Of a stretch of 64,000 nt of DNA, positions 10,425 to 49,605 are shown one piece after another. The DNA comes from Escherichia coli. Its GTDB lineage: Bacteria; Pseudomonadota; Gammaproteobacteria; Enterobacterales; Enterobacteriaceae. The DNA is taken from assembly GCF_048403405.1 (NCBI RefSeq), contig NZ_CP183129.1; one strand, given 5' to 3'. The notes under the pieces were generated by a model that was not told where the DNA came from, ran no database searches, and worked only from the letters and a program-made list of their open reading frames with translations. Every line of letters starts with the position of its first letter. The stretch's first letter is position 1. Position numbers and translations under genes: made by a program.

Positions 10425-11707
10425 AAAACGGTCACTCCTTTCATGCCATCCTTGATTAGATTGATGAAGCCCACTTTCTTACCGTGGCGGAGGATTTTCT
10501 TGCGCATCAGTTCCGGCACACTGCCGTCAATGGTGAACAGGTCACGCGCCACGCCCACCGCCAGTTCCGGGTAGCCGCTAAACATGCGTGGGTTATCAAG
10601 GAACGCCGGTAGTTTCTGATACATACGCATATCGCGCAGCGGACCACTCTCAAGATGCTGACGATATTCCGCCAGTTTTTGCTTACTGAAATCGTCGCTT
10701 TTCATCGCTGAAAGCACGGTTTTTGCTGCGGCTTCCCCGGCGGCAATCGCCAGATCCATACCGCGAATGGTAAAACCGAGGTTCATACACATTCCGGCGG
10801 CATCACCGGCAATCAGTACGCCGTCACCGACCAGCTCCGGCAGCATGTTGATGCCTGCTTCCGGCACTACGTGAGCGGAATATTCCACCAGCTTGCCGCC
10901 TGCGATCAGCGGTGCAACGGCCGGATGTTGTTTGAAATCTTCCAGCATTTGCGGCACCGATTTTTTCGCGTCATGTAGATGATGCAGACCACAAACCAAC
11001 CCCAGCGACAGAGTGTTTTCATTGGTATAAAGAAAGCCGCCGCCCATCAGGCCATCGGTGGGTGATCCCGCAAACAGGCAAGCCGCGCCCTGATTACCCT
11101 GCAACTGAAAACGGTCTTCGATTACCGACTTCGGTAACTCGATCAGTTCCTTCACGCCAACCGCCACATCCGTCGGTTTAACGCGTTTTGCCATCCCCAG
11201 CTTTTCGGCAAGGATGGAGTTCACCCCGTCAGCAAGGATCACCGTTTTCGCTTCAATCACATCGCCATCGGCTTCTACGCCGACAACTTTGCCATCGCGC
11301 TGTACGAGGTTATCGACACGAATCCCGGTAATTAACTGCGCGCCCGCTTCTTCGGCCTGCTCCATCAACCAGGCATCAAATTTACTGCGCAAAACGGAGT
11401 AAGAACGCTGGGATGGCGAGGTTTCGTCGCCATTGCAGTAGTCCATGGTCATCGCTGACTTTTCCGTCATAAACGCGAGTTTTTCATGGGTGATCAGGCG
11501 TTCTACGGGGGCGGATTCGGCGAAACCAGGAATAATGTGTTCCAGGCTGTGGGCATAGAGACGCCCGCCGGTGACGTTCTTGGCACCTGCGGAATTGCCA
11601 CGCTCGATAACTAACACTTGCGCACCTTCGCGGGCGAGCACCAGTGCGGCAACCGAACCGGCAAGCCCAGCACCGACGATGATGGCGTCAAAGATATCTT
11701 CGGACAT
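10421..11707 (-). CDS. fixC: FAD-dependent oxidoreductase FixC (ETF-quinone oxidoreductase-like)
   Basis: 428-aa ORF, N-terminal GAGLAG dinucleotide-binding motif; overlaps fixX by 4 nt. Confidence 0.94.
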   Translation of the reverse strand: MSEDIFDAIIVGAGLAGSVAALVLAREGAQVLVIERGNSAGAKNVTGGRLYAHSLEHIIPGFAESAPVERLITHEKLAFMTEKSAMTMDYCNGDETSPSQRSYSVLRSKFDAWLMEQAEEAGAQLITGIRVDNLVQRDGKVVGVEADGDVIEAKTVILADGVNSILAEKLGMAKRVKPTDVAVGVKELIELPKSVIEDRFQLQGNQGAACLFAGSPTDGLMGGGFLYTNENTLSLGLVCGLHHLHDAKKSVPQMLEDFKQHPAVAPLIAGGKLVEYSAHVVPEAGINMLPELVGDGVLIAGDAAGMCMNLGFTIRGMDLAIAAGEAAAKTVLSAMKSDDFSKQKLAEYRQHLESGPLRDMRMYQKLPAFLDNPRMFSGYPELAVGVARDLFTIDGSVPELMRKKILRHGKKVGFINLIKDGMKGVTVL

Positions 11708-46169: not shown

Positions 46170-48086
46170 TTATTTTTTGTCTTTGACTTCTTCAAATTCA
46201 GCGTCGACAACATCGTCATCTTTCGCGTTGTTTGCAGAAGCATCAGCACCGGCAGTCTGCTGCTGGGCATGTTGCTGCTGGGCGATTTCCATCAGTTTCT
46301 GGGAAACCTGTGCCAGTTCCTGCATTTTCGCTTCGATAGCGGCTTTGTCTTCACCTTTCAGAGCAGTTTCCAGTGCAGTCAGTGCAGACTCGATAGCAGT
46401 TTTGTCGTCAGCCGGCAGTTTGTCGCCTGCTTCTTCAACCTGCTTACGGGTGCTGTGCAGCAGATGGTCACCCTGGTTGCGAGTCTGTACCAGCTCTTCA
46501 AACTTACGGTCAGCTTCGGCGTTAGCTTCTGCGTCGCGTACCATTTTCTGGATTTCATCTTCGTTCAGACCAGAAGAAGCCTTGATGGTGATCTTCTGCT
46601 CTTTACCGCTGTTTTTATCTTTCGCGGAAACGTGCAGGATACCGTCAGCATCGATATCGAAGGTAACTTCGATCTGCGGCATACCGCGCGGTGCCGGGTT
46701 GATACCATCCAGGTTGAACTGACCCAGAGATTTGTTATCAGCCGCACGTTTACGTTCACCCTGCAGCACATGGATGGTTACCGCAGACTGGTTGTCTTCA
46801 GCGGTAGAGAACACCTGGCTGTGCTTGGTCGGGATAGTGGTGTTTTTCGCGATCAGCGTCGTCATCACACCGCCCATGGTTTCGATACCCAGTGACAGCG
46901 GGGTAACGTCCAGCAGCAGTACGTCTTTTACGTCACCAGTCAGAACACCACCCTGAACAGCAGCACCGATTGCTACAGCTTCGTCCGGGTTAACGTCTTT
47001 ACGCGGCTCTTTACCAAAGAACTCAGCAACTTTCTTCTGAACCATTGGCATACGAGTCTGACCACCAACGAGGATAACGTCGTCGATATCAGATACGGAC
47101 AGGCCAGCGTCCTGCAGTGCAACTTTCAGCGGCTCAATGGAACGGTTTACCAGATCTTCAACCAGGCTTTCCAGTTTCGCACGAGTCACTTTGATGTTCA
47201 TGTGTTTCGGACCGGTCGCGTCTGCAGTGATGTACGGCAGGTTAACGTCGGTCTGCTGAGCGGAAGACAGCTCGATTTTCGCTTTTTCTGCCGCTTCTTT
47301 CAGGCGCTGCATTGCCAGCGGATCGTTGCGCAGGTCAATGCCCTGATCTTTCTTGAATTCTTCAACCAGGTAGTTGATCAGACGGCTGTCGAAGTCTTCA
47401 CCACCCAGGTGGGTATCACCGTTGGTTGCCAGAACTTCGAAGGTTTTTTCGCCGTCAACTTCGTCGATTTCGATAATAGAAATATCGAAAGTACCACCAC
47501 CCAGGTCATAAACCGCGATAGTACGGTTGCCAGTACCTTTGTCCAGACCGTAAGCCAGCGCAGCTGCGGTCGGTTCGTTGATGATACGTTTTACTTCCAG
47601 ACCAGCGATACGGCCTGCGTCTTTGGTTGCCTGACGCTGAGCATCGTTAAAGTATGCCGGTACGGTGATAACAGCTTCAGTTACCGGTTCACCCAGGTAA
47701 TCTTCAGCGGTTTTCTTCATTTTTTTCAGCACTTCAGCAGAAATCTGCGGCGGTGCCATTTTCTGGCCTTTAACTTCGACCCATGCGTCGCCGTTATCAG
47801 CAGCAATAATTTTGAACGGCATGATGGAAACATCACGCTGTACTTCTTCGTCCTGGAAGCGGCGGCCAATCAGGCGTTTAATCGCAAACAGGGTGTTTTG
47901 CGGGTTCGTCACTGCCTGACGTTTAGCCGGCTGACCAACCAGAGTTTCACCATCCTGGGTATAGGCAATGATAGAAGGCGTGGTGCGATCGCCTTCGGCG
48001 TTCTCCAGTACACGAGGAGTGGTGCCATCCATAATCGCTACACAAGAGTTGGTAGTACCCAGGTCGATACCAATTATTTTACCCAT
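46170..48086 (-). CDS. dnaK: molecular chaperone DnaK (Hsp70)
   Basis: 638-aa [20 protein letters not shown]... Confidence 0.98.
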
Positions 48087-48119
48087 CTAAACGTCTCCAC
48101 TATATATTCGGTCATCATG

Positions 48120-48245
48120 TGGTTGTGAGTCTGTAATAGGGGCGAAACGTCTGGTTTCAACTGCCCAATTTCATTTTTTTGCAGACTCACTCACTGCGGT
48201 TGACTACTAAATGGGGTCGTAACCCACGTCATCAAGGGGGAGATG
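48120..48245 (-). promoter_or_regulatory. dnaK sigma-32 heat-shock promoters (P1/P2)
   Basis: on minus strand: CTCCCCCTTGATGA ... CCCCATTTA and CAGTTGAAA ... GCCCCTATT, matching sigma-32 -35/-10 consensus (CCCTTGAA / CCCCATnT). Confidence 0.7.
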
Positions 48246-48891: not shown

Positions 48892-49605
48892 ATGAATGTT
48901 AATTACCTGAATGATTCAGATCTGGATTTTCTCCAGCATTGTAGTGAGGAACAATTGGCAAATTTCGCCCGGCTGCTCACTCATAATGAAAAAGGCAAAA
49001 CTCGCCTCTCCAGCGTACTGATGCGCAACGAACTGTTTAAATCGATGGAAGGACATCCCGAGCAACACCGCCGCAACTGGCAGCTGATTGCCGGAGAATT
49101 ACAACATTTTGGTGGCGATAGTATCGCCAACAAATTGCGCGGACACGGTAAATTGTATCGGGCCATTTTGCTCGATGTTTCAAAAAGATTGAAGCTGAAA
49201 GCCGACAAAGAGATGTCTACGTTTGAAATTGAGCAACAGTTACTGGAGCAATTTCTGCGTAATACCTGGAAGAAAATGGACGAGGAACATAAGCAGGAGT
49301 TTCTGCACGCGGTCGATGCCAGGGTGAATGAGCTGGAAGAGCTGCTGCCGCTGCTGATGAAAGACAAATTATTGGCAAAAGGCGTGTCGCATTTGCTTTC
49401 CAGCCAATTGACCCGCATTTTACGCACCCACGCAGCAATGAGCGTACTTGGGCATGGTTTGCTGCGCGGCGCGGGGCTGGGAGGCCCTGTAGGCGCGGCA
49501 CTAAATGGGGTTAAAGCGGTCAGCGGCAGCGCCTATCGCGTGACGATTCCAGCCGTACTGCAAATCGCCTGCCTGCGCCGGATGGTTAGTGCCACTCAGG
49601 TCTGA
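48892..49605 (+). CDS. yaaW: UPF0174 protein YaaW
   Basis: 237-aa ORF; synteny between yaaI and satP. Confidence 0.85.
   Translation: MNVNYLNDSDLDFLQHCSEEQLANFARLLTHNEKGKTRLSSVLMRNELFKSMEGHPEQHRRNWQLIAGELQHFGGDSIANKLRGHGKLYRAILLDVSKRLKLKADKEMSTFEIEQQLLEQFLRNTWKKMDEEHKQEFLHAVDARVNELEELLPLLMKDKLLAKGVSHLLSSQLTRILRTHAAMSVLGHGLLRGAGLGGPVGAALNGVKAVSGSAYRVTIPAVLQIACLRRMVSATQV

Follow-up and report, generated by a model that had tools for sequence, protein, structure and literature searches.

The window, the whole 64,000-nucleotide stretch of Escherichia coli DNA that was analyzed, contains the gene yaaW with satP on one side and yaaI and dnaK on the other, which is the setting of K-12; the window runs in the opposite direction to the K-12 sequence, and dnaK therefore lies on its minus strand. 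An antisense open reading frame (ORF) lies fully within yaaW (Table 1). The ORF listing confirmed the preliminary description of the locus, which had reported a 148-codon minus-strand ORF wholly inside yaaW, and the identification with htgA/mbiA made there was borne out by a base-for-base mapping. K-12 b0012 mbiA (NC_000913 10830..11315, 161 aa) maps to positions 48933..49418 on the minus strand, antisense in yaaW, with the window ATG at 49418 aligned with K-12 position 10830. The start at 48934 given in that description is not an ORF boundary in the window; it is 1 base off the mapped K-12 mbiA end (48933) and is therefore essentially that end. The stop-free run around the antisense ORF is 183 codons long and is bounded upstream by an in-frame TAG. 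The antisense ORF is the already described, disputed mbiA/htgA/htpY frame of Escherichia. Its disputed coding status, as also stated in the preliminary description, matches the literature (Delaye 2008, PMC2268670), and the curated K-12 record retains the mbiA coding sequence (CDS; b0012) inside yaaW.

Table 1. Features of the yaaW/mbiA locus (positions in the window)
Feature	Position	Strand	Remarks
yaaW CDS	48892..49605	+	237 aa; DUF3944 and Ubiq_cyt_C_chap domains; from the ORF listing
Antisense ORF, truncated allele of mbiA/htgA/htpY	48981..49427	-	148 aa, GTG start; coordinates include the stop
ATG, annotated K-12 mbiA start	49416..49418	-	145 aa from here; from coordinate mapping and translation
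Allele-specific TGA stop	48981..48983	-	TGG (Trp146) in K-12; caused by yaaW-silent ACC>ACT (Thr30, yaaW nt 90)
K-12 mbiA stop codon position	48933..48935	-	TGG in the window and 3,853 genomes; TGA in 1,500
Next in-frame stop, TAA	48903..48905	-	End of the ~171-aa read-through form, the commonest in E. coli
Upstream in-frame TAG bounding the stop-free run	49533..49535	-	Opposite yaaW Ala214-Tyr215
CCCCATTT, sigma-32 -10-like	49503..49510	-	Upstream of the ORF
GGGTG, weak Shine-Dalgarno-like	49425..49429	-	6 nt before the ATG; putative, read from the sequence

yaaW is a real, selected gene at this locus. The YaaW protein of the window is 100% identical to that of K-12 and scores above the cut-offs of Pfam PF13099 and PF03981, and the codon-usage score of yaaW (+0.215) is gene-typical. 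Omega of yaaW was 0.27 for changes silent in MbiA and 0.03 for those that change MbiA, a sign of strong constraint. yaaW was matched in 5,424 of the 5,426 complete E. coli genomes with identities of 96.6% to 100%, including an exact match in strain 7/2, and a match was absent in the other two. In NZ_CP180600.1 (strain PS2Canimalfeces12), an IS1-family element in yaaW leaves two annotated fragments. RefSeq/PGAP gives yaaW the name "msyB, acidic protein MsyB" in each of the 15 E. coli genomes with PGAP annotation that were inspected, and no PGAP gene call was found on the minus strand at yaaW in these 15 genomes. The NCBIfam equivalog NF007593, which bears the MsyB name, matches YaaW end to end with 520 bits, but the true MsyB (K-12 b1051, 124 aa) does not resemble YaaW (BLASTP E = 2.6) and matches another model, NF008544. 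The MsyB label on yaaW looks like a propagated naming error.

The yaaW gene of the window differs from that of K-12 at 16 nucleotides, none of which changes the YaaW protein. These differences result in S4N, R78L, S95N, W146stop, N149S, and stop162W in the MbiA frame. Compared with K-12 MG1655 mbiA (b0012), the frame of the window has the same locus, strand relation, phase, and ATG and agrees with it at 141 of the 145 shared residues; unlike in K-12, it carries S4N, R78L, and S95N and ends 16 codons early (W146>stop), so that the product from the K-12 ATG has 145 aa rather than 161. The preliminary description had called the frame open here too, which holds for the 145 codons from the K-12 ATG but not for codon 146, where TGG is replaced by TGA. 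Stops in close relatives had been named there as counting against a gene, and such stops do in part occur, among them that of the window itself. In searches with allele-specific 30-mers against all complete E. coli genomes, the window allele (yaaW nt 90 T, stop at MbiA codon 146) was found in 247 of 5,424 genomes and nt 90 C (MbiA Trp146) in 5,156; the codon-146 stop is also present in the E. albertii type strain. A shorter htgA arising from a nonsense mutation was noted earlier in the strain encoding UniProt Q8FLC7 (Delaye 2008, PMC2268670). With no more than the final 10% of the frame lost, the truncation alone does not decide the coding question. At yaaW nt 42, the K-12 allele T produces the stop at MbiA codon 162, and the allele C results in read-through of this stop (genome counts in Table 1). 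Only 1,500 of 5,424 genomes carry the annotated K-12 stop, which makes this form of mbiA a minority allele. From the alleles at nt 90 and nt 42, it follows that three C-terminal lengths (145, 161, and ~171 aa) segregate in E. coli.

A scan of species-representative genomes covered 17 yaaW loci. In E. coli, E. albertii, and two further Escherichia lineages, the antisense frame runs open for 183 to 209 codons, and in E. whittamii it is open throughout the part that was available; the first 145 mbiA codons are free of stops in all Escherichia sequences examined. The frame is closed by 5 to 8 stops in Citrobacter, Salmonella, Kluyvera, Pseudescherichia, and others, with the longest runs ranging from 59 to 102 codons. 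This species distribution agrees with the previous placement of the ORF origin in the Escherichia/Shigella lineage (Delaye 2008, PMC2268670). No homologue of MbiA outside Escherichia was found in a collection of 5.8 billion proteins, which held one Escherichia cluster with 14 members. Two sequences considered as distant MbiA homologues were rejected as assembly artefacts; they are on E. coli-like contigs with 95% nucleotide identity and 12 to 13 gaps, and their yaaW is frameshifted. One locus in NZ_JAATUR010000005.1, labelled E. coli SCPM-O-B-8794, has a yaaW four-fold-site divergence from the window of 0.34 to 0.50, which is E. albertii-like; this genome probably belongs to a cryptic Escherichia lineage and not to E. 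coli sensu stricto.

A frame that is open for at least 145 codons throughout Escherichia and closed in the other genera speaks for MbiA being the product of a genuine, recent overprinted Escherichia gene with a weak or conditional function, all of whose forms (truncated, K-12, and extended) would have a function. Biofilm modulation and, originally, heat-shock regulation have been proposed as functions of MbiA. The conserved ATG preceded by a weak Shine-Dalgarno-like sequence, the earlier experimental reports (PMC2268670, PMC2731890), and the retained K-12 CDS point in the same direction. Such a gene is nevertheless unlikely, given the length, composition, and substitution pattern of the frame.

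The length of the mbiA ORF is within the chance range, not beyond it. When synonymous codons were redrawn according to codon usage in the window, with the YaaW protein kept fixed, 22% of 20,000 trials yielded an ORF of at least 148 codons in the same phase, and 8.6% of the recodings contained a stop-free run of at least 183 codons. In the 64-kb window, 22 antisense overlapping ORFs of at least 148 aa lie over approximately 53 genes (a gene set obtained by simple longest-first selection), and the mbiA frame is the shortest of them. The other 21, for example, the 308- and 267-aa ORFs opposite dnaK, are similar to it in length, nongenic codon usage, and neutral evolution. However, most generic shadow ORFs are in the exactly complementary phase, whereas the third-versus-third phase of mbiA is found in only 3 of the 22; mbiA also differs from them in having a history of experimental claims. 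The dnaK gene (46170..48086, minus strand) has antisense ORFs of 308, 267, and 181 aa (region 46092..48128, plus strand), and a gene of 1072 aa (21849..25067, minus strand) is overlain by a 631-aa antisense ORF (23319..25214, plus strand). Being much longer than the mbiA frame, the antisense ORFs at these two genes show a high background of shadow ORFs.

The codon-usage log-likelihood of the mbiA ORF is -0.291 per codon, lower than that of any of the 54 accepted genes, whose lowest score is -0.148 and whose average is +0.247. Among 51 overlapping ORFs ranked by this score, it takes 39th place. MbiA contains 22% Ser and 9.5% Cys. Neither the codon usage nor the composition of the ORF is genic. 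Pfam and NCBIfam searches of MbiA retrieved no family, and an AlphaFold2 single-sequence model, with a mean pLDDT of 28.9, is compatible with the lack of a fold, although such a result carries little weight when the protein is an orphan. Nongenic codon usage, a length in the chance range, and the lack of a fold and a family all argue against a genuine gene. The Ser/Cys-rich composition of MbiA is the complement of the Leu/Glu-rich helical segments of YaaW. At 49330..49356, the codons GAG CTG GAA GAG CTG CTG CCG CTG CTG are read as ELEELLPLL in YaaW and as SSGSSSSSS on the opposite strand. The peptide SSGSSSSSSFT highlighted in the preliminary description is present, but its longest serine run is six residues and not the seven given there (8 of 9 residues are Ser).

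Selection on the MbiA frame was analyzed with an alignment of 16 E. coli sequences, spread evenly over the identity ranking, and 3 sequences from other Escherichia. Among yaaW-silent changes in the overlap, those nonsynonymous in MbiA comprised 18 transitions at 30.4 sites and 11 transversions at 76.2 sites, and those synonymous in MbiA comprised 63 transitions at 148.4 sites and 9 transversions at 60.1 sites. The maximum likelihood estimate of the MbiA-frame omega on yaaW-silent changes in the 19 sequences was 1.27 (95% confidence interval [CI], 0.79 to 1.98), and omega values of ≤0.5 were rejected (p = 2e-4), in a test that counts segregating sites rather than tree events and ignores effects of Leu CTG/TTG codon bias. 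The same statistic was 1.03, 1.07, and 0.94 in three groups with a closed frame (Citrobacter and Kluyvera with their relatives). Purifying selection on the MbiA protein was not detected, and the pattern is neutral, like that of the closed-frame controls. An omega of about 1.3 that is indistinguishable from these controls is at odds with a genuine gene, although a very young mbiA under weak or conditional selection could evade the omega test. In a related possibility, MbiA would be a de novo protein too young or too weakly or conditionally selected for sequence tests, and its forms of 145, 161, and ~171 aa would be a functional biofilm polymorphism, which we consider quite unlikely.

A stop in the K-12 frame can arise by 73 single-nucleotide changes, only 6 of which are silent in yaaW. 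Over two alleles, there are seven yaaW-silent routes to a stop, including three transitions (nt 42, 90, and 513) and four transversions (nt 162, 252, 414, and 498). Two of the silent routes are polymorphic in the 19 sequences, compared with 1.9 expected under neutrality, and both are among the three transitions. Stop polymorphisms at the neutral expectation, together with three C-terminal forms within one species, further weigh against a genuine gene. The population-wide survey covered the three transition routes. The nt 513 T allele, a silent transition that places a stop at codon 5, was absent from the 5,426 genomes when both common haplotypes were queried; its absence favors a genuine gene but, as a single site, is weakly informative.

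The mbiA frame is probably a nonselected "shadow" ORF, whose existence and persistence are side effects of yaaW. Its third codon positions face those of yaaW (the "123/213" phase of Delaye 2008, PMC2268670). In this phase, an antisense stop requires a yaaW Tyr codon preceded by a codon that ends in a pyrimidine, or a His or Gln codon preceded by one that ends in T, and Escherichia YaaW has few such stop-permitting contexts. Nearly all stop-creating mutations alter a YaaW residue as well and would be removed by selection on YaaW, and because of this selection the mbiA frame would stay open without selection on its own product. In agreement with this, conservation in a phase shielded by selection on the mother gene has been described as a possible artefact (PMC4182739). 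The mbiA ORF is thus most likely not a selected protein-coding gene, and from these comparisons of sequences we infer that a functional MbiA protein is absent.

Compared with other Escherichia, divergence at four-fold sites is 0.28 to 0.34 in the overlap and is not below that of the neighboring genes yaaI and satP (0.14 to 0.36). Compared with E. albertii, it is 0.33 in the overlap and 0.55 in the rest of yaaW; the somewhat lower value in the overlap speaks for a genuine gene, but the same drop is found in comparisons with Citrobacter and Salmonella, which are without the ORF. The argument of Delaye for a slower evolution of yaaW in the presence of htgA was not found compelling, with an amino acid divergence of YaaW from E. 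albertii (2.5% to 3.9%) similar to that of SatP, a neighbor that is not overlapped (2.1%).

In another reading, the functional product would be an untranslated antisense RNA from within yaaW that modulates yaaW by transcriptional interference or by forming an RNA duplex, with the ORF being incidental. The missing constraint at the protein level would be compatible with such an RNA, as would an intragenic htgA/yaaW promoter that is active in vitro (PMC2731890) and the Northern signals for htgA cited in Delaye 2008 (PMC2268670). However, the overlap does not have the synonymous divergence below that of neighboring genes that a conserved RNA predicts, and no sigma-70-like promoter was found on the minus strand upstream of the ORF. 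A sigma-32 promoter for mbiA was not supported; the -10-like motif CCCCATTT upstream of the ORF is at chance frequency (6 in the window versus 7.1 expected), and no convincing -35 partner was seen for it. In addition, an Rfam search of the region retrieved no family, with a chance-level match (E = 0.46) located outside the ORF. A regulatory antisense RNA appears very unlikely. A terminator-like hairpin just past the stop (48969-48957, minus strand) was also discarded, as such hairpins are at chance level (2 found versus 1.3 expected).

Previous reports on htgA are conflicting. Fellner, in 2014, reportedly observed biofilm and metabolite phenotypes of strand-specific stop mutants. According to the summary in Delaye 2008 (PMC2268670), Missiakas reported in 1993 that htgA/htpY has promoters and is transcribed and that a labelled protein is produced from it. 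The overprinting origin of htgA was proposed in the same study (Delaye 2008, PMC2268670), whose authors called the existence of htgA controversial, since the start codon had been moved, the sigma-32 induction had not been reproduced, and one allele was truncated. The failure to reproduce the induction, as discussed by Delaye, also argues against a genuine gene. Like the proposed antisense overlapping genes of Scherer and Neuhaus (nog1/citC, laoB, ano, pop/ompA, and asa), mbiA is embedded and confined to Escherichia, and an origin by overprinting has been suggested for it; unlike mbiA, which was judged here by evolutionary tests with negative results, those candidates rest on transcriptome sequencing (RNA-seq) and ribosome profiling (Ribo-seq).

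htgA/mbiA has repeatedly been cited as one of few "established" antisense overlapping genes in E. coli and has served as a textbook example of a gene born by overprinting. The substitution pattern and the allele counts argue for passive persistence under selection on yaaW and show the K-12 form to be a minority allele, which makes the frame a weaker positive example and training case for the detection of overlapping genes. For genome annotation, yaaW is the only gene that has to be called here. The motif count incidentally revealed another CCCCATTT at 48209..48216 (minus strand), on the strand of dnaK and ~120 nt upstream of its start, where it presumably fits the sigma-32 promoter of dnaK.
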